Source of the DNA: Candidatus Micrarchaeota archaeon
GTDB lineage: Archaea > Micrarchaeota > Micrarchaeia > Anstonellales > Bilamarchaeaceae
Assembly: GCA_040754495.1 (NCBI GenBank)
Contig: JBFMCO010000028.1
Span: 13,878 to 77,877, forward strand
DNA length: 64,000 bases
Reading direction: 5' to 3'
In this document: positions 10,735 through 51,439 of the stretch, one piece after another
Numbering within the stretch: the first letter of the stretch is position 1
Layout of the letters: every line of letters starts with the position of its first letter
Notes under the pieces: model-generated
The model's database searches: none
Told to the model about the DNA's origin: nothing
Seen by the model: the letters and a program-made list of their open reading frames with translations, nothing else
Translations under genes and position numbers: made by a program

Positions 10735-11031
10735 GCAGGGGTTGCCGAGTGGTCAAAGGCGCCAGATTCAGGTGCGCTTCCCTATTGAAACGATGTTTCA
10801 ATGGGGCCCAAAGAACGGTTCGCCGTTCTTTGTGGTTTGGAAAAAAGCGCCCAAAAACGGGCTGTTGAAAAATCCTTCCGGATTTTTTTGCAAGTCAGTT
10901 TTGGGCCGCCTCGTCGAGAACGGCGTTCCGTTCTCGATGCGCAAGAACGCTTCGCGTTCTTGGCTGTTTCCTAAAAGGCGGAAACGTCTGGTCGGTTAGT
11001 CCGTTCGAGAGTTCAAATCTCTTCCCCTGCA
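10735..11031 (+). tRNA. tRNA-Leu(CAG) with ~213-nt intron at 37/38 (10773..10985)
   Basis: Acceptor GCAGGGG/CCCCTGC-A, GAGTGG D-loop, anticodon stem CCAGA/TCTGG, long variable arm, GTTCAAATC T-loop; relaxed BHB at the junctions. Confidence 0.85.
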
Positions 11032-11051
11032 TATACTCTTTCTTAAGTTGG

Positions 11052-11372
11052 TCAAAAGCACACGACCTTATCGCTCTTCTTTACCAGTGCGTACAGGTCT
11101 TTCAATGAGGAGATGGGGCATAAATTATCGCCTTCTTTGTTCCTCAGCTTAAGGCAGGTACCGCACGCGAGAATGATACCGCCTGCCGACGCAAATTTTT
11201 CTGCCTCGTCCTTTGCAGGGAATTTCTCAGTGCTTATCTCCTCATAGTCGACGGCTTTGCCCACAAGGAAAACCCTTACTTCGTCGCCTTCTTTTTTCGA
11301 GAAGTTCGCAAGCCTGAAGGCATTCCAGGCAGCCTCTATATCGCTGGTCGAAATCACGATTCCAAGTTCCAT
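11052..11372 (-). CDS. DsrE/DsrF-like family protein
   Basis: AWNAFRLANF, VRVFLVGKAV, LACGTCLKLR motifs. Confidence 0.85.
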   Translation of the reverse strand: MELGIVISTSDIEAAWNAFRLANFSKKEGDEVRVFLVGKAVDYEEISTEKFPAKDEAEKFASAGGIILACGTCLKLRNKEGDNLCPISSLKDLYALVKKSDKVVCF

Positions 11373-11385
11373 GTCAATCACCTGG

Positions 11386-12006
11386 TCATTCCAGGTCCTT
11401 CTTCATCTCTTCATATTGTTTTTTTGCTATCTCTCCCCGCGCATATCTCTGCTTAAGGATCTCTGAAGCCGTAAGCGCCCTGCTAGTCCCGGTAACGCTC
11501 CGGTAAAGCCAGAATATGGCCAGAATAAGCGCGACAAACACCAATACCCAAAACACAAGGCCGACTATCCAGCCCCAGCCGCCATACCCCATCATGTCGT
11601 AACCCATCATTCCGCCGTAAGGGTAATTCATCATGCCGCCTCCAAATCCTGATCCATAGCCACCGAACCTGCCCATCATGGGCATCATGCCCATCATGCC
11701 GCCGTATGTGACGCTCGTATTCGTTTGCCCGCAGTAGAGCACAAGCGCCATCTGTACATGCGCCTGCTCAAGGCTTGCAGAGCCTTCGCCGCCCATCATC
11801 TGGTCCATAGCCTCATGGGCTTGCCCCGGATGCATCTGCTCCATAAAATATTCGCCGATTAGTTCAAGCTGCTCCTGGCTGAGCTTGTCGCAGCTGATAT
11901 TGGAATCGATAAGCTGTTTCGAAGCGGTGGCGTCCTCAGTGCTCATTGTCGCGAATAAAGGAACCGCAAGCGCCATGACCAGCATCATCATTAGAAACTG
12001 CTTCAT
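11386..12006 (-). CDS. Membrane protein with Gly/Met-rich region and C-terminal SHOCT domain
   Basis: Signal peptide; His/Met-rich segment; GGMM repeats; TM helix; EILKQRYARGEIAKKQYEEMKKDL. Confidence 0.85.
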   Translation of the reverse strand: MKQFLMMMLVMALAVPLFATMSTEDATASKQLIDSNISCDKLSQEQLELIGEYFMEQMHPGQAHEAMDQMMGGEGSASLEQAHVQMALVLYCGQTNTSVTYGGMMGMMPMMGRFGGYGSGFGGGMMNYPYGGMMGYDMMGYGGWGWIVGLVFWVLVFVALILAIFWLYRSVTGTSRALTASEILKQRYARGEIAKKQYEEMKKDLE

Positions 12007-12338
12007 TCTATCACCTCGGATGCGCCGGCTAAATCCCTCATCTGCTTCAATCTCTCGCTTAAAATTTCGCGGATGATATCAAACGCCTTTATGATTTTAG
12101 GGTTAGCGAGGCGATAGTAGATATTCACTCCCTTCCTTTTAGGCACAAGAATGCCCCTGCTTTTCATTATGGTCAGGTGCTGGGAGACATTCGACTGGCT
12201 CAGATTCGTTTTCCTTGTCAGTTCGGAAACTGTCAGCTCGCCGTTGCGCAGAAGGTTTAATACCTCAAGTCTTGTAGGGCTGGAAAAGACCTTGCACATG
12301 TCGGCATGCAACCGATAAATCTCTTTATCCATAGACAT
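12003..12338 (-). CDS. ArsR/SmtB family transcriptional regulator
   Basis: KVFSSPTRLEVL, SQSNVSQHLTIMK, RKGVNIYYRL; 4-bp overlap with the downstream gene. Confidence 0.9.
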   Translation of the reverse strand: MSMDKEIYRLHADMCKVFSSPTRLEVLNLLRNGELTVSELTRKTNLSQSNVSQHLTIMKSRGILVPKRKGVNIYYRLANPKIIKAFDIIREILSERLKQMRDLAGASEVIE

Positions 12339-12364
12339 TAGGATATTCTAATAAGTTTAATAAC
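12337..12364 (-). promoter_or_regulatory. Candidate ArsR operator (ATTAG-N6-CTAAT) over the start codon, with upstream TATA-like TTATTAAA
   Basis: Inverted repeat at 12337-12352; AT-rich box ~25 nt upstream of ATG 12332. Autoregulation is inferred from family behaviour. Confidence 0.4.
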
Positions 12365-12574
12365 CATTCATGTCGCTCGAATCCAGCACTGCTGCCGGAC
12401 TTGGGGGAAGAAACCGAAAAAAGGCTTAAATCCTCTGCCCCTCGTCTGTCCTGCAGCGCTTTGGCTTAAACCCAGGCTCACAGAACGGCTCCGGGATACC
12501 CCGTATCCTTTTCTATGCCTAAGGCTAGGGGTATTGAATTCCAGAAGCGTCATTCTATGCTTTCGCGAACGCCT

Positions 12575-12769
12575 TCAGAGTTTTTTCACGTTCTTGGCGC
12601 GCGGCCCGCGCTCGCTTTGCTCGACTTCGTATTCCACGGCATCGCCGGCTGCGAGCACTGCGCCGCCTTCAATTGCCGAGGTGTGCACATACACGTCCTT
12701 GCCGTCGTCGCCCGTGATAAATCCGAAGCTCCGTGCGGCGTTGAACATCTTTACTTTTCCTTTCATCAT
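12575..12769 (-). CDS. csp: Cold-shock protein (CspA family)
   Basis: KGKVKMFNAARSFGFI (RNP1) and DVYVHTSAI (RNP2). Confidence 0.95.
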   Translation of the reverse strand: MMKGKVKMFNAARSFGFITGDDGKDVYVHTSAIEGGAVLAAGDAVEYEVEQSERGPRAKNVKKL

Positions 12770-12937
12770 ATCACCTTCGTTTCATCTTACCTGCAAGGAA
12801 TGTAGATGCAGAGGGTATAAAACATCTAGCGATGCCATCACCATTTTATTTTTAGCCCGCGAAATCAGGAACGGATGAACCAAAGCCCCTATGAACGGAC
12901 TACAAACCCAAGCTGGTGAGGGGCGGCGGGGACTGGT

Positions 12938-12974
12938 TTCCGCCTTTTAGTAAAAGGCGGCCCAAAACGGGCCG
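12938..12974. repeat. Double-hairpin element (CCGCCTTTTAGTAAAAGGCGG + CCCAAAACGGG) just past the glmU stop; related to modules in two tRNA introns
   Basis: Perfect inverted repeat; shares AAAA(A/G)GCG(G)CCCAAAA(A)CGGGC with 10841-10862 and 19686-19708. Confidence 0.65.
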
Positions 12975-14207
12975 TTAAACGTCCTCCTCGAACTTGCCGA
13001 ACTCAATTGGCTGCCTTGTATAGACGCGCGAGCCTGAGGGCACGTTCTTGTTCACCACGACTCCTGAATGAATCCAGCAGTTCGAGCCGATCAGCTTGCC
13101 CGGCATCGTGCAGGAGAGCACGCCGAATTTCGTGTTGTCGCCGACGAAAACGCCAAGCTTCTTCTTGCCTGAATTCGCCCATCCCCTCTCCGTGAGGACG
13201 TTCACGTTGTCGCCGTCGAAGCGGAAATTCGCGATTTGCGTGCCTGAGCCGAAATTGACATTCTCGCCTATCACGCTGTCGCCAATATAGGTGAGATGCT
13301 TGGCATTGACGGAATCAAGAAGGATGCTGCTTTTCACCGTGCTGCCCGGGCCGATTGAGCAGTTCTTCCCGATGCTGTTGAATCCCCGCAGGCATGCGTT
13401 CGGGCCTATGACCGTGTTTTCCCCTAGGTATGCGCACCCTTCCACGTAGCTGTTGATGATTCTCGCGCCCTTCTCCATGATTACCTTCCCTTCAATCGTG
13501 GAATTCTCGATGTGCCCGCTTTTCGCTTCCATCCCGGACAGCAGGTGCTCGTTCGCCTCGAGCAGGTCCCACGGGTACGCGATGTCCCGCCAGTAGCCTT
13601 CAACGGGCACGCCTTTCGCGCCGACAAAAAGGCTCACCAGCTCGTACTCGCCGCGCTCGGATTTCCCGAGGGATTTGAGCTCGCTGAACACGGTAGGCTC
13701 CATGCAGTATACCGAGAGGTTCGCGAGGTCGCTCTTCGGGTGCGCGGACTTCTCCTCGAAAAGGCTTATCCGCCCGCCCGAGAGCTCTGCCACGCCGTAG
13801 TTGTGCGGGTTCGCGACCTTCTTGAGGCCGACCGTGATTCCGCCCTCGTGCGCCTCCATGACCGCATTCATCACCGAAGCTTCGGTCACGATGTCGCCGG
13901 CAAGGGCAAGGAAGGTGTCGTCCAGCAGCTCCTGCGCGCACAGCAGCGCCGCGCCGGTGCCGTTGTCTGAGCCCTGCTCGACGAATTCGAGTTTCAGCCC
14001 GAGCCCGGCACTGGAAAGGTATTCGATGAGCTTCTCCTTCATGTGACGGACGACCACGACCGCCTCCTTCACCCCGGCCTTCTTCGCCTCGAGGAGAAGG
14101 TGGTGGATGATTGGCCTGCCGCCGGCGTAGAGCATGGGCTTGGGCCTCGTCTCGGTCAGGGGTCGCAGGCGCATGCCGTCCCCGGCTGCAAGAATCACGG
14201 CTTTCAT
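12975..14207 (-). CDS. glmU: Archaeal bifunctional sugar-1-phosphate nucleotidylyltransferase/acetyltransferase (GlmU-like)
   Basis: ILAAGDGMRLRPLTETRPKPM, hexapeptide repeats, GDNTKFG. Confidence 0.9.
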   Translation of the reverse strand: MKAVILAAGDGMRLRPLTETRPKPMLYAGGRPIIHHLLLEAKKAGVKEAVVVVRHMKEKLIEYLSSAGLGLKLEFVEQGSDNGTGAALLCAQELLDDTFLALAGDIVTEASVMNAVMEAHEGGITVGLKKVANPHNYGVAELSGGRISLFEEKSAHPKSDLANLSVYCMEPTVFSELKSLGKSERGEYELVSLFVGAKGVPVEGYWRDIAYPWDLLEANEHLLSGMEAKSGHIENSTIEGKVIMEKGARIINSYVEGCAYLGENTVIGPNACLRGFNSIGKNCSIGPGSTVKSSILLDSVNAKHLTYIGDSVIGENVNFGSGTQIANFRFDGDNVNVLTERGWANSGKKKLGVFVGDNTKFGVLSCTMPGKLIGSNCWIHSGVVVNKNVPSGSRVYTRQPIEFGKFEEDV

Positions 14208-14301
14208 GTTTCTCCCGATGGTAAAATCCGCGACTGTGTTTAAGTTATTTGTGATATATCAACATAATCATTTATAAACTGTAACAAACAAATCAGCACC
14301 T

Positions 14302-15147
14302 ATGCCGGGGAGGAAGAGGCTTGCTTACGGGGATGGGGAGGGGGTGGAGGCGCGGAGGCCGAAGCTCATCAGGACGCTTGTTTTCGGCTCAGCTTTTTTT
14401 GCGGCCATGACCGCGTGCACTCCATGCACCAATGCCGTGCCAATAAGGGAACCCGCGGTGGAGAGGCCGCGCAGGGCGCCGCCTGCCACGGAAAGCGCAG
14501 GGCATGCCGAGAGCCCAGGGGCGCCTTCATGCAGGTTCAGCGGGAGAACGCTTGAGTATTCCACCAATGATACCGTCATGAGGCTGGTCAATCTGCTCGA
14601 TAGCGGCGAGAGCGTGAGGGAGGTAATTTGCCGCAGGGACCGCGCTTTCGTGCTCACAGACACAAGCCGCATAATCGTGCGGCCGGGCTCCGGCAACCAG
14701 TTGCCTGATGGGGACGGGACAGCCATAAGCCATTTAGCGTCTTACACGCGGACGGATATGGCCGGGCTGAATTCGAGGGGCATCGTGGACTGGGAGGCAA
14801 CGGATTCTGCCTGCTATTTCCTCACCAGGGACAGGAGGCTGACGGTGCTCGCGAACGACGAGCTCGGGGATACGGTTCCCGAATACGAGCTTCCCTTCGA
14901 CACGGCGGGCCTCGGCCGCAACAGGATGGCCTTCCACTCGGGGTTCATTTTCATAGCGCCGCTTTCCGGGAGCGCGGTAGTGATGTCTTTCGGGGAGAAC
15001 GCGGGGGCCTCTTACCTGCCGCTCGAATCAGCCGACAGGAGGGCGGGGTTCATAGTGAGGGGGGACAGGCTGTTCTTCGGAAAAAACGGAAAGGAAAAAG
15101 AGATAATAATAGGCGGGCCTGATGCGCACGACGTCAGCGTCAGATGA
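14302..15147 (+). CDS. Hypothetical lipoprotein with beta-propeller-like repeats
   Basis: Basic N-region, hydrophobic stretch ending AAMTAC; repeated short beta units (RAFVLTD, ACYFLTRD, RLFFG). Confidence 0.7.
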   Translation: MPGRKRLAYGDGEGVEARRPKLIRTLVFGSAFFAAMTACTPCTNAVPIREPAVERPRRAPPATESAGHAESPGAPSCRFSGRTLEYSTNDTVMRLVNLLDSGESVREVICRRDRAFVLTDTSRIIVRPGSGNQLPDGDGTAISHLASYTRTDMAGLNSRGIVDWEATDSACYFLTRDRRLTVLANDELGDTVPEYELPFDTAGLGRNRMAFHSGFIFIAPLSGSAVVMSFGENAGASYLPLESADRRAGFIVRGDRLFFGKNGKEKEIIIGGPDAHDVSVR

Positions 15148-15858
15148 CTAGCCGCGCTCGCGCTCCGCCCTGCTTCTCCACCGGACATCTATTCGGCTGA
15201 TGACATCAAGGTCCGGGGTTTCGCCCCTGGCGTGCGCGCTGGCGAACTCCCTCTGGATGGCCACGTACGCAGGCCTCGCGGCGGCCATGAACTGGTCCCG
15301 GGTAAGCATGACTTCCCTGCCCTGGGCGTCGGTCGTGGTTATCCGGAAGTCGCTCGGCGCCGCGCTTTCGAGGTAGGTTATGAGCCTGCCGCCCTTCGTC
15401 TGGTCCGCGCGCGTCATGGTACCGCTCCACCTCAGGTCCCGGTTCGCGTCTATGGTATATGTCCGGCCGTCCACCGTGACCTCGTAGGAATGCCTGTGCG
15501 TCATGACCGGCGCGGGAGGCGTCCTGAGGGTGATTTCCGGCGAGATGTTCCGGATGCCGAGGTTCCTGTTGAGAAGCCTGCGGGCCTCGTCGAACCTCTT
15601 GTTGAGGCGGTGGTTGAGGATTTCGTTAAGCCTCGTAGCCACATTCATGAAGTCGCCTTGGGCCATGTAGGGCGGAACTACGACCCCCTCCCTTCCCCTT
15701 GCCACCTGGTCGGCGCGGGTGTAAATCTCACGCGCCTGCAGCGGGGAATATCCGAGCGCCTGCAACTGGGATATAACGGTCCTCTGGACCTCCTGCTGGG
15801 TAAGCCCCGTTGTCTCTTCCGCTCCTCCTCTCCTCCTCTGGGCTGGTGCTCCTGTCAT
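15148..15858 (-). CDS. ORFan, MTG-tag tandem family member 3 (divergent)
   Basis: Starts MTGAPAQRRR; GAGGTG SD; C-domain YEVTVDGRTY is homologous to the two upstream copies. Confidence 0.8.
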   Translation of the reverse strand: MTGAPAQRRRGGAEETTGLTQQEVQRTVISQLQALGYSPLQAREIYTRADQVARGREGVVVPPYMAQGDFMNVATRLNEILNHRLNKRFDEARRLLNRNLGIRNISPEITLRTPPAPVMTHRHSYEVTVDGRTYTIDANRDLRWSGTMTRADQTKGGRLITYLESAAPSDFRITTTDAQGREVMLTRDQFMAAARPAYVAIQREFASAHARGETPDLDVISRIDVRWRSRAERERG

Positions 15859-15867
15859 AATAACACC

Positions 15868-16527
15868 TCACGGGTTCCTCGTCCGCCTGCCCTGCTGGGG
15901 CGCCATGGCGATGCGTATGTCCGGCCGCTCCACGTACTGGCCGTTCGTGTAGGTCCTTCCGACATAATCGTCGCGGAAGATGTCGAGCCTCTGGTTCGGC
16001 GCGCCTGAGTTGAATGCGGCCGATTCGGCATCCCTTCCGACGCGCGTAACCTGCGCATACACGACCTGCCCTCCGCTTTCCACGAGCTTGTTGTTGAGGA
16101 GGAGGTCGTGGAGGATGGCCCTTGCGGCAACTTCATCCACCCTGCCGTTCGGCCTTGTCGGGAGGGGGTCCGGAAGGGCGACCTGGTAGGTCCTGTTGCC
16201 GAGCGTGACTTCATACACAGTAGCTTGGGTCATGCGTGGAGCCGGCCTTGGCTGCTGCGTCGGGGCCGGAGGCTGCGCCCTCTGCGGCACGGGCGAGAGC
16301 TGGGTGGGCTGCTGGCCGAGCTGCCGGGCAACCTCCTTCAGGCGCTCGGCTGCCTCCGCAAGGCGCTCGCTCTGCTCCATGAGCCTGCGCGCCTGGCTTG
16401 GCGGGATGGGCGAGCGAATCGGCGACAGGGCGTTTGCGATGTCCATCAGGGCGTCCCTTACCACCCTCAGCGTTCTATCCTGCTCCGTTTCCCGTTCTGG
16501 CCTTCTTTGTGCTGGTCCCGTCATCAA
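15868..16527 (-). CDS. ORFan, MTG-tag tandem family member 2
   Basis: Starts (M)MTGPAQRRPE; AGGTGAT SD; C-terminal domain nearly identical to member 1. Confidence 0.85.
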   Translation of the reverse strand: MMTGPAQRRPERETEQDRTLRVVRDALMDIANALSPIRSPIPPSQARRLMEQSERLAEAAERLKEVARQLGQQPTQLSPVPQRAQPPAPTQQPRPAPRMTQATVYEVTLGNRTYQVALPDPLPTRPNGRVDEVAARAILHDLLLNNKLVESGGQVVYAQVTRVGRDAESAAFNSGAPNQRLDIFRDDYVGRTYTNGQYVERPDIRIAMAPQQGRRTRNP

Positions 16528-16729
16528 ATCACCTTAAGGATTCCTCGTCCGCCTGCCCTGCTGGGGCGCCATGGCGATGCGTATGTCCGGCCGCTCCACG
16601 TACTGGCCGTTCGTGTAGGTCCTTCCGACATAATCGTCGCGGAAGATGTCGAGCCTCTGGTTCGGCGCGCCTGAGTTGAATGCGGCCGATTCGGCATCCC
16701 TTCCGACGCGCGTAACCTGCGCATACACG
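15875..16729. repeat. Direct repeat: 15875..16063 identical to 16541..16729 (189 bp, offset 666), with looser similarity for ~140 bp beyond
   Basis: Direct comparison of the two segments; first mismatch at 16064/16730. Confidence 0.9.
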
Positions 16730-17148
16730 GCCTGCCCTCCGCTCTCGACAAGCCTGTTGTTGAGGAGGAGGTCGTGGAGGATGGCCCTTGCGGCCACTTC
16801 ATCGACCTGGCCGCTGCGGGTGGTCGGGAGGGCCTGGGGAAGGGCGACCTGGTAGGTCCTGTTCCCGAGGTTGACCTGATAGACGAATGCCTGCGTCATC
16901 TGTGGTGCCGGCCTCGGCTGCTGGACCGGACCGGCCTGCTGGGGCGTCTTCTGCGGCACGGGCGAGGGGCGGCTCAGAAGGTTCTCGATTGTGTTGAGAA
17001 GCTCCCGCAGCGCGTCCCTTAAGCGCTCCAGTACCGGCCTCGGAGGCGGCCTGATTTGCACTTCCTGCCTAAATCTCTCGAGCGCCTCCGGATTGATCGT
17101 TATTACATGCTGCTCCGCTTCAGGTCTTCTTTGTGCGGGTCCAGTCAT
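16534..17148 (-). CDS. ORFan, MTG-tag tandem family member 1
   Basis: Starts MTGPAQRRPE at ATG 17148; GTGAT SD. Confidence 0.85.
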   Translation of the reverse strand: MTGPAQRRPEAEQHVITINPEALERFRQEVQIRPPPRPVLERLRDALRELLNTIENLLSRPSPVPQKTPQQAGPVQQPRPAPQMTQAFVYQVNLGNRTYQVALPQALPTTRSGQVDEVAARAILHDLLLNNRLVESGGQAVYAQVTRVGRDAESAAFNSGAPNQRLDIFRDDYVGRTYTNGQYVERPDIRIAMAPQQGRRTRNP

Positions 17149-17211
17149 AATATCACACAAAATGTATATTCGAAGAGAAGATTTTTTAACAGGCTTAGTA
17201 TCAGATATGAT

Positions 17212-18255
17212 ATGCTTGAGCGAAAGAGGGTAGAGGACATACTATCCGGCTACAGGAAATTCAAGATTGCGACCATCTGCTCGCACTCCTCCCTCCAGAT
17301 ATTCAAGGGCGCAAGGGAGGAGGGGATAAAGACCATCGGCATCGTGCAGAAGGACAAGCGCAAGCTGTACGAGTCTTTTCCCCTTGGGCGGCCGGACGAA
17401 TTCATCGAGGTGGACAGCTACGGGGACATACCGTTCGATTACCTCGTGGACGAGGAAGCGATAGTCATCCCTCACGGCTCGTTCGTGGAATACGTGGGGC
17501 AGGCTTTCGACGACATGGAAGTCCCGGTCTACGGCAACCGCGCCAGCATCGCGTGGGAGCGGAGCCGCGAGAAGATGTTCCAGTGGATAAGGAAGGCCGG
17601 CATCAAGACGCCCCGGACGTTCAAGCCCGACGAGATAGACGGGCCGGTCATGGTGAAGTTTCCGGGCGCCAAGGGCGGCAGGGGCTATATCATCGTGCGG
17701 TCGGAGAAGGAGTTTCGGGAAAAGGTCGGCGCTGACCGCGAGTGCATGATACAGGAGTTCCTGATAGGGGTCCGCGCGTACCCTCATTACTTCTTCAGCC
17801 CGTTCAAGAACCGCGGCTACGAGACGAAGCAGGGGGAGCTCGAGCTTCTCGGCGTAGACAGGAGGGTGGAGAGCAGCGCAGACGAGATTGCGCGCGCGGT
17901 CTCGCTCGGGATGGAGCCGCACATGGCTTTCACGGTCATAGGAAACGAGCCCCTGGTCCTCCGCGAATCGCTCCTCTCCGAGTACATGGAGATAGGGCGG
18001 ATGATAAGCGAGACCTCCTTCGACCTCTTCGGGGGCCTGATAGGGCCCTTCTGTGTCGAGACCATAATAACCGAGGAGCTGGAGATATACGCCTTTGAAA
18101 TCAGCGCGCGCATCGTCGCCGGGACGAACGTATATCCGGAGGGCTCGCCGTATTCGGTCTATTATTACAAGGAGCCGATGAGCGCGGGCAGGCGCATCGC
18201 CAAGGAGCTGAAGAAAGCGGCAAGGGCGAAGAAGCTCAAGCAGATAGTATACTGA
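17212..18255 (+). CDS. purP: 5-formaminoimidazole-4-carboxamide ribonucleotide synthetase (ATP-grasp)
   Basis: CSHSSLQI, PHGSFVEY, VKFPGAKGGRGY, EISARIVAGTN, GRRIAKELK. Confidence 0.92.
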   Translation: MLERKRVEDILSGYRKFKIATICSHSSLQIFKGAREEGIKTIGIVQKDKRKLYESFPLGRPDEFIEVDSYGDIPFDYLVDEEAIVIPHGSFVEYVGQAFDDMEVPVYGNRASIAWERSREKMFQWIRKAGIKTPRTFKPDEIDGPVMVKFPGAKGGRGYIIVRSEKEFREKVGADRECMIQEFLIGVRAYPHYFFSPFKNRGYETKQGELELLGVDRRVESSADEIARAVSLGMEPHMAFTVIGNEPLVLRESLLSEYMEIGRMISETSFDLFGGLIGPFCVETIITEELEIYAFEISARIVAGTNVYPEGSPYSVYYYKEPMSAGRRIAKELKKAARAKKLKQIVY

Positions 18256-18959
18256 TGGTCAGGATGGCAAGGGACAGCAGACCGGTGCATATCGCGATAA
18301 TTCCTGACGGAAATCGCAGATGGGCCGAGAGGAAGGGCATAAGCAAGCGCGAGGGCTACGCCATAGGGATACGCAAGATAGGCGACGTCCTCAAGTGGTG
18401 CAAGGCCAGGAACGTCCGCATGCTCACCATGTGGGGCTTCTCCACCGACAACTTCAAGCGCGACAAGGAGGAGGTCGGCGAGCTTTTCGGCCTTTTCAAG
18501 GAGAACCTGGGGAAGGCGATAGAGAGCGACGACCGGAACAAAAAGGAGTTGCGGGTGCGCTTTTTCGGCCGGCTGCACCTGTTCCCGAAAGAGATGCAGG
18601 ACATGATAAGGAAGGCCGAAGAGGTGACCTCTTCCGGAGACCGCAAGTACCAGCTCAACCTCCTGCTTTCGTACGGCGGCCGCGAGGAGATTGTCGATGC
18701 GGTCAACAGGATAATCGCGGAAGGCATCCGGGAAGTGGACGAAGACGGGATAAGCAGCCATCTTTACACGAAAGGCGTCCCGGACCCGGACCTGATAATA
18801 AGGACGTCGGGCGAGCAGAGGCTCTCAGGCCTGATGCCGTGGCAGAGCTGTTACAGCGAATTCTATTTCTGCAAAAAGCTCTGGCCGGACTTCTCCAGAA
18901 GGGATTTCGACTCGGCCCTGAAGGAGTACGCAAGGAGAAGAAGGAGATACGGCAGGTGA
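18255..18959 (+). CDS. uppS: Undecaprenyl/polyprenyl diphosphate synthase (cis-prenyltransferase)
   Basis: HIAIIPDGNRRWA, FSTDNFKR, YGGREEI, DPDLIIRTSGEQRLSG. Confidence 0.95.
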   Translation: MVRMARDSRPVHIAIIPDGNRRWAERKGISKREGYAIGIRKIGDVLKWCKARNVRMLTMWGFSTDNFKRDKEEVGELFGLFKENLGKAIESDDRNKKELRVRFFGRLHLFPKEMQDMIRKAEEVTSSGDRKYQLNLLLSYGGREEIVDAVNRIIAEGIREVDEDGISSHLYTKGVPDPDLIIRTSGEQRLSGLMPWQSCYSEFYFCKKLWPDFSRRDFDSALKEYARRRRRYGR

Positions 18960-18966
18960 GAAAGGC

Positions 18967-19395
18967 TCACTTATGGAGCCCACTGTACCTGTCGCGGTAG
19001 CGGCGCATCATGTCGTCCACGCTGTTCGCCTGGTCGATTGCGAAGAGCACCTTCGATGCCATGAACAGGAGCACGACCGGCAGGAGGAGAAGGGCCCGCG
19101 CGGTCAGGCTGTCCTCCACCACCATGAGGGCGACGAAAAGGAACATCCCCAGGCCGACGATGAAGTGCATCTTCGATATCAGCGCAAGGAGGAAGCTGAA
19201 GGGGCCGTCCTTCTTTTTGTTGTCGGCATCTGAAAACTCGATATGACCTGAGGCGAGAGCCGCGAGCACCCCGGTCTCAGGATGCGCAGCCCTGTCGTCG
19301 AGAGCCGAGGAGAGGCACATTGCGGCGAGGATGACGAGAACGGGTGCCAGGTGCCATATATTAACCACTGGGGGCTCAGAAATGCTAGTGGTCAT
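18967..19395 (-). CDS. Hypothetical membrane protein
   Basis: ORF with three hydrophobic segments; fills the gap between uppS and the tRNA. Confidence 0.65.
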   Translation of the reverse strand: MTTSISEPPVVNIWHLAPVLVILAAMCLSSALDDRAAHPETGVLAALASGHIEFSDADNKKKDGPFSFLLALISKMHFIVGLGMFLFVALMVVEDSLTARALLLLPVVLLFMASKVLFAIDQANSVDDMMRRYRDRYSGLHK

Positions 19396-19525
19396 ATAAG
19401 TGTATAAATGACCGGCAAGAGTTTTTTAATTTCATGCTTACTTTTATGGGATGGAAGTTACTTTTTGGGAAGCCCTGCGGGTAATGGAATCGCTTATAAA
19501 AACTACCATCAAACAACCCTATCAT

Positions 19526-19743
19526 GCCGCAGTAGCTCAGTGGGAGAGCACACCCGGTTCTTTTAGGCATTGTTCTGCTGAAAGAATCTGTGAAGCTGAA
19601 GACTCTCAGTGAGTCGGAGGCCCTTTTCGGGCTGCCTTATCAAGGCAGAAACGGTGGGGTCGCTTGTTCAATGCGCTTTTTTAGTAAAAAAGCGCCCAAA
19701 AAACGGGCTTGCTAAAACGCGCGGACAAATCAGGCCTGCGGCA
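19526..19743 (+). tRNA. tRNA-Phe(GAA) with three introns: 30/31 (19555..19594), 37/38 (19602..19650), 58/59 (19672..19728)
   Basis: Joining exons 19526-54, 19595-601, 19651-71 and 19729-43 gives a 72-nt cloverleaf (GCCGCAG/CTGCGGC-A; CACCG/CGGTG; loop CTGAAGA; GCTTG/CAGGC). BHB helices: CACA/TGTG, CTG/CAG, GTTC/GGAC. Confidence 0.88.
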
Positions 19744-30814: not shown

Positions 30815-30923
30815 GGGCCCGTGTGGCAACCTGGATAACCGGCAGGGCTTCGGATGCCTTTGACCGATTGCGGTCTTTTGCTGGAGCCACCCTGAGATGC
30901 GGGTTCAAATCCCGTCGGGCCCG
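30815..30923 (+). tRNA. tRNA-Arg(TCG) with 35-nt intron at 37/38 (30854..30888)
   Basis: GGGCCCG/CGGGCCC-G, CAGGG/CCCTG stem, CTTCGGA loop, GGTTCAAATCC; BHB helix CTTC/GGAG. Confidence 0.9.
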
Positions 30924-51334: not shown

Positions 51335-51439
51335 TGGGCCCACCCAGGATCGAACTGGGGATCTTCGCTGTTTGCTCTCTGCATGCCATGATGTCATGCA
51401 AACGTAAGAGCGACGTCTTCACCACTCGACTATGGGCCC
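51335..51439 (-). tRNA. tRNA-Val(TAC) with 32-nt intron, best placed at 36/37 (51372..51403)
   Basis: GGGCCCA/TGGGCCC-A, TCGCT/AGCGA, CCCAG-TTCGATC-CTGGG; an 8-bp intron helix supports a cut after C36, giving loop CTTACAC. Confidence 0.85.

Follow-up and report, generated by a model that had tools for sequence, protein, structure and literature searches.

We analyzed a stretch of 64,000 nt from a Candidatus Micrarchaeota archaeon (Bilamarchaeaceae; assembly GCA_040754495.1, contig JBFMCO010000028.1, positions 13,878 to 77,877 of the forward strand), which is called the window below. It harbors a tRNA-Leu(CAG) gene, a tRNA-Phe(GAA) gene, and the gene glmU, and a small hairpin module is present in introns of both tRNA genes and also at the 3' end of glmU. 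The next gene after glmU on the minus strand is csp, which encodes a cold-shock protein. The genes and introns are located as follows:

10735-11031, plus strand: tRNA-Leu(CAG) gene (ARAGORN, introns allowed), with exon 1 at 10735-10772, an intron at 10773-10985, and exon 2 at 10986-11031
12975-14207, minus strand: glmU coding sequence (410 aa, stop codon at 12975-12977; from the list of open reading frames and from orthologs)
19526-19743, plus strand: tRNA-Phe(GAA) gene with three introns (placed by hand; about 27 orthologs compared)
19555-19594, plus strand: Phe intron at position 30/31
19602-19650, plus strand: Phe intron at position 37/38
19672-19728, plus strand: Phe intron at position 58/59 in the T-loop (57 nt)

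The intron of tRNA-Leu(CAG) comprises 213 nt and is located at position 37/38. Cutting out 10773-10985 left 84 nt, which were called as tRNA-Leu(CAG) by ARAGORN, in agreement with the intronless orthologs. Removal of the three introns from the Phe gene left 73 nt, which were called as tRNA-Phe(GAA), in agreement with the intron-poor orthologs. A canonical tRNA was restored by intron removal in both cases. ARAGORN in default mode detected no tRNA within the window, and Rfam detected only two tRNA genes, both with canonical introns. Most tRNA genes of the kind described here escape standard tRNA finders. ARAGORN assigned the anticodons TCG and CAA to tRNA genes at 30815-30923 (plus strand) and 51335-51439 (minus strand), respectively; the introns there are canonical and short (35 and 32 nt), and the hairpin module is absent.

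A preliminary description of the window had reported a common motif at 10841-10862 (Leu intron), 12953-12972 (after glmU), and 19686-19708 (Phe T-loop intron), and the sequence reads so at all three places. The hairpin said to precede the motif in both the Phe and the glmU copy is indeed present in both. A 15-mer of the glmU copy, read on the minus strand, had been reported to match the Leu intron at its 3' end; the match is real and covers 18 of 19 bases, and none of 500 shuffles reached its score.

The module consists of two parts, a hairpin designated H1 and a following arm, CCCAAAAC, which is often closed into a mini-hairpin. H1 has a 9-bp stem, in which CCGCC or GCGCC with T4-6 is followed by a 3-nt purine-rich loop and by A4-6 with GGCGG or GGCGC. 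Four tRNA genes contain the complete unit, a palindrome about 95 nt long with H1, CCCAAAAC, a central hairpin, GTTTTGGG, and the second terminal hairpin H1' in this order. It is seen, for example, in the Trp intron at C26:1414-1509 and at C58:3256-3349 (C-numbers denote contigs of this genome, G000, an assembly of 1.63 Mb in 72 contigs with 59.5% G+C and 80% completeness; other G-numbers denote related genomes and L-numbers other loci). The full units are near-perfect palindromes ending in H1 and H1' and have the terminal inverted repeats of a miniature inverted-repeat transposable element (MITE). Short forms retain only one end, with the arm closed into CCCAAAACGGG, followed in some cases by a third small hairpin, CCGTTAAACGG. 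The size classes are about 35-57 nt for short forms, about 95 nt for full units, and up to about 250 nt for composites. The window contains the following elements:

10841-10910, plus strand: truncated full element in the Leu intron, including the motif at 10841-10862 (sequence comparison and fold)
10963-10985, plus strand: degenerate H1' hairpin and AAAC tail at the 3' end of the Leu intron (direct reading)
12938-12981, plus strand: extragenic short form at glmU, with H1, a CCCAAAACGGG mini-hairpin, and a partial CCGTTAAACG hairpin, which abuts and overlaps the glmU stop codon
19634-19650, plus strand: eroded H1' (TGCCTTATCAAGGCA followed by GAA) at the 3' end of the Phe 37/38 intron (ortholog comparison)
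19672-19728, plus strand: the Phe T-loop intron, composed of T, H1 (GCGC-T6-AGT-A6-GCGC), a CCCAAAAAACGGG mini-hairpin, half of H1' (CTAAAACGCGC), GGAC, and AA

The description needs correction for the Leu intron, where the motif does not form a hairpin by itself and is the left arm of an internal full element with truncated ends. This element has lost the outer halves of H1 and H1' and reads, in order, as the 3' half of H1, CCCAAAAAC, the central hairpin, GTTTTGGGC, and the first bases of H1'. The partner of the left arm is GTTTTGGGC at 10898-10906, and the two arms pair in the minimum-energy fold. Over 62 nt, the element shares 89% identity with the intron in the tRNA gene at C59:8528-8710. 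The 5' end of the Leu intron (TGCGCTT, 10773-10779) corresponds to the beginning of the 5' strand of H1, and the intron is a composite in which the unit at 10841-10910 is nested between H1-type ends of the intron itself. Two more hairpin modules are present at 10784-10838, CCCTATTG...CAATGGGG and then a AAAGAACGG...CCGTTCTTT hairpin. They recur at C56:56456-56747 and C50:30600-30650 (another tRNA intron, and near a C/D-like small RNA) and in the spacer upstream of tRNA-Leu of other species (L055, L069). Several hairpin families seem to be shuffled together.

The mini-hairpin GCCC-A3-7-CGGGC occurs seven times genome-wide, every time beside the same larger hairpin. A search with an nhmmer profile yielded about 30 oriented copies at E<0.01 in G000, and a looser pattern scan was concordant. 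A 28-mer pattern matched 16 times in G000 and many times in the relatives, while the reversed control pattern had no match in 41 genomes. The motif is neither confined to the three sites in the window nor explained by low-complexity chance, two outcomes that had been named as refuting the preliminary description. Among the best 30 copies of G000, 24 were located in about 20 tRNA genes, 1 right after a tRNA gene, 1 was ambiguous, and 4 were located elsewhere (downstream of glmU, within pyrF, in an intergenic region of C29, and after a C/D-like small RNA on C50). Of 19 copies in two better-assembled relatives, 16 were inside tRNA genes and 1 was in a tRNA trailer; the other 2 were located elsewhere. 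On public contigs of metagenome-assembled genomes (MAGs), 50 of 81 matches fell strictly within tRNA genes as seen by a simple tRNA detector, and many of the remaining matches are visibly located in tRNA genes that this detector missed.

The 50 tRNA-internal copies were split 26 to 24 by orientation, which fits a position of H1 at the outer edge of either intron end. The G000 copies whose flanks were read had H1 at the intron's outer edge and the arm directed inward. A single genome carries related introns in about 20 different tRNA genes, at D-loop, 30/31-37/38, and T-loop positions. Copies outside tRNA genes are real but few (about 10-20%). Since 80-90% of the copies are located in tRNA genes, the family is foremost an intron family. 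With tRNA genes put at well under 1% of the genome, we estimate the enrichment in tRNA genes to be more than 100-fold. The pattern had no match among the IMG/VR viral contigs, and a viral or plasmid source was rejected on this basis.

The archaeal splice motif is a 4-bp helix between two 3-nt bulges, which is cut after the second bulge base. The junctions of the introns were read by hand, as the splice motif did not appear in minimum-energy folds of complete pre-tRNAs. In the worked introns, the 5' exon ends with four bases plus two. The first base of the intron, usually T, is bulged and leads directly into the 5' strand of H1. At the 3' junction, 4 nt that can pair with the exon come after the 3' strand of H1', and 2 nt more complete the intron. 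The following junctions were read (^ marks the cut):

Phe 58/59: GTTC AA^T GCGC...GCGC GGAC AA^A, 4 of 4 pairs, one of them G-U
G011, intron at the Phe 58/59 site: homologous, with the tail GAAC AG
Pro D-loop: GCTC AG^T CCGCC...GGCGG GAGC AG^C, 4 of 4 pairs
Phe 30/31 (not an H1 intron): CACA CC^C GGTTCTTT...AAAGAATC TGTG AA^G, 4 of 4 pairs

At Phe 58/59, GGAC pairs with the exon bases GTTC (positions 53-56), and the three-base bulge on each side gives a bulge-helix-bulge geometry. As read in the worked junctions, H1 and H1' supply the intron-side helix (h') of the predicted splice motif, and the 4-nt tail supplies its central helix. Placement and junctions show most copies to be predicted protein-spliced (bulge-helix-bulge) tRNA introns at D-loop, 30/31, 37/38, and T-loop positions. 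The types of the bulge-helix-bulge motif are treated in PMC3239211, which also describes the epsilon-2 endonuclease of Micrarchaeota as tolerating a relaxed motif. In G000 the EndA catalytic domain (PF01974) matched with 81 bits in a 421-aa reading frame on C14, and there was a weaker second locus. Compared by length alone, the 421-aa frame is consistent with the three-unit epsilon-2 type.

Pairing within H1 was followed in 176 distinct copies, which were collected with an anchor that leaves the clamp unconstrained. The outermost clamp pair was C-G in 89 copies and G-C in 51, and 81% of the copies had a Watson-Crick pair at this position versus 41% with shuffled partners. The inner pairs were Watson-Crick in 94-95%, and rarer clamps with compensated changes were found too. 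The H1' of the Phe 37/38 intron is intact in some relatives (CGCC..GGCG in G020, G047, and G022) and carries compensated changes in others (CACC..GGTG, AAAC..GTTT, AGC..GCT). In G000 its stem is eroded yet still pairs (TGCCTTATCAAGGCA). The hairpin covaries, and its structure is under selection.

We compared tRNA-Leu(CAG) in 21 species and tRNA-Phe in about 27 species, with a species tree from glmU and pyrF, and in both genes the orthologs differ in intron presence. The Leu gene is intronless (84-mers) in 14 species, among them the close relatives G017, G047, and G044. An intron at 37/38 that opens with H1 was found in G024, G002, and G000, a D-loop intron that opens with H1 in G006 and G018, and a D-loop intron of another kind in G010. 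Since G006, with its D-loop intron, is the sister of G000, the 213-nt Leu intron is specific to the G000 species, and the sister acquired a different one. The Phe 58/59 intron is present in only 4 of the about 27 species and is of the H1 type in G000 and G011 and of another type in G006 and G041. The Phe 30/31 intron is present in about two thirds of the species. The Leu and Phe 58/59 introns are young; ancient introns had been named as part of another possible refutation.

In three other species (L074, L111, L181), one tRNA gene carries a T-loop intron to which the glmU copy is identical at 43 of 44 bases; the G000 ortholog of this tRNA lacks the intron. The T-loop of this tRNA (C22:56376 and C4:14150 in G000) is unusual, with TGCGAGT in place of TTCRAAT, and a short-form element interrupts it in some species. 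In many relatives, glmU and tRNA-Leu(CAG) follow each other on the same strand. An origin of the intergenic copy from a tRNA fragment had been named as a possible refutation, and no convincing exon remnant was found. Only a 10-mer of the variable arm matches, which was reached by 29 of 2000 shuffles (p about 0.015), and the spacing is wrong, so the view of the glmU copy as a relic of tRNA-Leu(CAG) was not favored.

A second copy outside tRNA genes is located within pyrF, which encodes orotidine-5'-phosphate decarboxylase (C14:17190-17220, outside the window; gene at L001:1072-1947, minus strand). H1 is inserted in frame as RLLGKGAPKRG, and it is therefore probably translated. An interpretation as a spliced mRNA intron was rejected: the insert is in frame and shows no splice-motif geometry. 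Among 30 orthologs of the same genus, only G000 and G018 have this H1, and the sister species of both lack it; the insertion was either recurrent or transferred.

At the junction of the genes for aIF2beta and aIF1A, both empty and filled forms were found. The empty form, ATAAGGTGATATG..., in which the stop codon overlaps the ribosome-binding site, is present in G000 (C63, about 1290) and in many other genomes. The junction is filled by the module in sense orientation in G047 and G022 and by an inverted half in G017, G048, G045, and G021. The flanks of the filled junctions are AAGRTRA on the left and AAGGTGATATG on the right and form a 9-11-bp repeat. The sisters G047 and G017 have opposite halves at this site, which is most simply explained by a full palindrome that lost one half in G047 and the other in G017. 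G023 has an exact 9-bp ATAAGGTGA repeat around a different hairpin. The junction (L266-L295) is a hot spot for hairpin insertion between the aIF2beta stop and the aIF1A start, and unrelated hairpins are found there too.

Outside introns, H1 begins 0-8 nt after the ends of genes: tRNA genes, a gene resembling the signal recognition particle RNA, a C/D-like small RNA, and several stop codons (0-3 nt). In at least five tRNAs, T and H1 begin immediately 3' of the discriminator base. The form T, H1, CCAAAAAAC was seen behind the discriminator at C22:18773-18805, C14:44063-44090 (minus strand), C23:10331-10360 (minus strand), L090, and L135; in one variant, the clamp is CCCC and the T-run is T6. The element behind the discriminator may serve in termination or in 3'-processing. 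The copy in the tRNA-Gly trailer is kept between distant species. Within C23:10280-10500 (minus strand), the order of features is a complete tRNA-Gly(GCC), an A/T hairpin, a fragment with a second T-arm and the 3' part of the acceptor, and the H1 module. The arrangement may have arisen by partial duplication, or it may represent a second tRNA-Gly with multiple introns. By eye, no exon-like sequence of split or permuted tRNA halves was found at the extragenic copies. No Rfam family matched the module, and the only C/D-like match lies upstream of the C50 copy. A box C/D guide RNA in the module was rejected, as TGATGA is present in only a few copies and Rfam did not match the module itself.

Of 24 other genomes of the genus, 18 had the 28-mer pattern; it was absent from all 16 genomes that represented other families of the order. 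A public scan with one genome per species (185,579 species) returned at least 111 stretches. Those listed were labelled Micrarchaeota, Micrarchaeia, Bilamarchaeum, or Bilamarchaeaceae, or belonged to unnamed archaeal MAGs or to two 'ainarchaeum' MAGs, and among the matches listed there was one exception, the exact 28-mer on two contigs of the Ruminococcaceae MAG UMGS1591 (L096, L144). The flanks of these two copies are similar to each other and non-archaeal. They are probably an unrelated terminator-like repeat or contamination. The element family is confined to one genus of Micrarchaeota.

We consider it likely that a family of small palindromic DNA elements, specific to the genus, has this module as its terminal hairpin, exists mostly as tRNA introns, and spreads in a MITE-like manner. 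The preliminary description had proposed a palindromic element that forms tRNA introns and also sits between genes, as a possible source of intron gain. The palindrome, the copies inside and outside tRNA genes, and the recent gain and loss all bear this out, and the role as an intron source is largely supported; the direction could be from element to intron or from intron to stray copy. The MITE-like reading, too, is largely supported, and the extragenic sites show what looks like insertion or copying at the DNA level, independent of the tRNA splice motif. A more tentative proposal, which may well fail, is that this element was the vehicle of tRNA intron gain in the lineage, with insertions that complete the 4-bp central helix being spliceable at once. 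In the likely, MITE-like reading, the element would move or be copied at the DNA level, and its palindromic ends would be pre-adapted in that they already encode the intron-side helix of the splice motif. Copies would survive mainly where these ends and the local exon sequence complete a motif that is cut by a splicing endonuclease of broad specificity, which would result in the strong enrichment in tRNA genes. At other sites they would survive only if neutral or useful, as at gene 3' ends, where the T-run may aid termination, or in a tolerant protein loop. One-sided copies would result from deletion of half the palindrome.

Several observations weigh against this reading. G000, at its 80% completeness, has no Y1 transposase domain and no reverse transcriptase. 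H1 is absent from the ends of all four TnpB loci of G000. Y1 genes are present in 9 of 40 relatives, and H1 was found beside only one of them, where it is located within a neighboring tRNA-Trp intron (G018). No autonomous element or transposase with H1 ends was found in G000 or at the Y1 loci of the relatives, all of them incomplete MAGs. The glmU copy has no target duplication and ends with an intron-type GAAAC tail, and it could be a stray intron copy rather than an intron precursor. The pyrF copy has no clean duplication, just a GGAG repeat. The repeat flanking the aIF junction carries the stop codon and the ribosome-binding site and could stem from selection to retain both signals rather than from target-site duplication. 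The anticodon-loop introns fit the splice geometry less well: the Leu 37/38 intron and several Phe orthologs form 3 of 4 central pairs, and the Thr intron and the Phe intron of G022 only 2-3 of 4. The Phe 37/38 intron with H1' is nearly universal in the genus and old, so part of the conservation is vertical; the family has both old and young members.

The four TnpB genes of G000 (Cas12f-like TNB domain) are located at C66:1399-2676 and on C5, C46, and C53, and one TnpB gene lies about 600 nt from an intron-bearing tRNA gene. An IS200/IS605 origin of the element was rejected, as G000 lacks Y1 and H1 was missing from the TnpB and Y1 loci examined. We also considered a larger element between inverted modules; two candidate pairs were found, and both were accounted for by neighboring tRNA genes. 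The open reading frame within one of these pairs had no match in Pfam.

The alternative that H1 is a host-selected hairpin, acting in termination or 3'-processing or as the site of a processing protein and spread and homogenized by recombination among tRNA genes, is unlikely in our view. A run of T4-T6 is a plausible archaeal terminator. The start of extragenic H1 copies within a few nucleotides of gene ends, the persistence of the tRNA-Gly trailer copy, and the maintenance of the Phe 37/38 H1' by compensatory changes all fit such a function. A T-run should be harmful inside an intron, however, and in the Phe T-loop copy a T6 run precedes the 3' exon. Many orthologous tRNA genes function without the element, and host selection leaves the full palindromes, the nested composite introns, and the in-frame pyrF copy unexplained.

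Even less probable is transposition of the introns at the RNA level. Here the excised intron would pair through its 4-nt tail with a new tRNA, endonuclease and ligase would act in reverse, and the product would be copied to DNA; copies outside tRNA genes would then be rare by-products of this process or remains of genes that once had introns. The exon-complementary tail would be a natural targeting mechanism, and the extreme bias of the copies for tRNA genes would be expected. The GAAAC tail of the glmU copy and the vicinity of glmU to tRNA-Leu(CAG) in many relatives can also be counted in its favor. On the other side, no reverse transcriptase was found in G000 at its 80% completeness, the glmU flank holds no convincing exon remnant, and neither the pyrF coding sequence nor the aIF junction, with its copies in both orientations and direct repeats, has a tRNA-like splice motif. 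RNA-level transposition and host selection account for some features (the complementary tail and the gene-end positions, respectively), but neither accounts for the copy in a coding sequence, the junction filled in two orientations and elsewhere empty, and the nested palindromes. Chance resemblance of low-complexity A/T runs with GC clamps, to which the expectation of 0.19 one-mismatch 14-mers per window and the exact 28-mer on the two Ruminococcaceae contigs might point, is refuted by the number of significant copies, the empty reversed control, the precise placement relative to splice sites, and the restriction to one genus.

The MITE-like intron family can be compared with several known systems. 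In Thermoproteales, intron transposition has been inferred (Fujishima et al. 2010, Mol Biol Evol 27:2233, as summarized in PMC4033280 and PMC3239211). According to these summaries, the Thermoproteales families share with the present one similar introns across tRNA species and positions, lineage-specific gain, and placement constrained by the bulge-helix-bulge motif. The present family differs in its occurrence in Micrarchaeota (DPANN) and in being a defined palindrome with a highly conserved terminal hairpin. Going by summaries of the 2010 paper, it is also set apart by its extragenic copies at gene ends, in a coding sequence, and at a filled or empty intergenic junction.

Ca. Micrarchaeum acidiphilum ARMAN-2, of the same phylum, has likewise many non-canonical introns, including positions 58/59-59/60 and two in the T-loop, and its relaxed motifs are cut by a single-chain epsilon-2 endonuclease of broad specificity (PMC3239211 and PMC3488258). 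The two papers cover the enzyme and the intron positions and do not describe a shared intron family or hairpin. The words 'hairpin' and 'palindrom' do not occur in the text of PMC3239211. The Micrarchaeota literature found by searching likewise deals with intron positions and the epsilon-2 endonuclease, and no shared intron family or hairpin was found in it.

Similar to MITEs and repetitive extragenic palindromic (REP) sequences, the element is small and non-coding, has terminal inverted repeats or hairpins, and is present in tens of copies in both orientations, with a 9-11-bp flanking repeat at one site and an occasional in-frame insertion into a gene. Unlike these, more than 80% of its copies are located in tRNA genes and are predicted to be removed as introns, most sites lack a clear target duplication, and no parent transposon or cognate transposase was found. 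The disruption of tRNA-Thr in Caldiarchaeum subterraneum also ties intron gain and tRNA fragments to mobile DNA within a short evolutionary time; according to PMC3293823, the element there has 1.8 kb and encodes a recombinase, whereas the present one has 35-100 nt and is non-coding. A study on Asgard introns (bioRxiv 10.64898/2026.10.13.758758) describes, as here, many recent lineage-specific gains where a splice motif can form. It reports almost no introns in shared families and leaves the route of arrival open, in contrast to the shared family and extragenic copies found here.

The element is a concrete lead on how archaeal tRNA introns reach new positions. The genus offers a tractable case, with a recognizable intron family, young gains at several positions of tRNA-Leu(CAG) and tRNA-Phe, and the same element at non-tRNA DNA, so that models of DNA transposition and of RNA reverse splicing become directly testable. 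If true, the proposed origin would document a route from mobile DNA to the protein-spliced introns of archaea, parallel to the transposon-derived 'introner' elements of eukaryotes.

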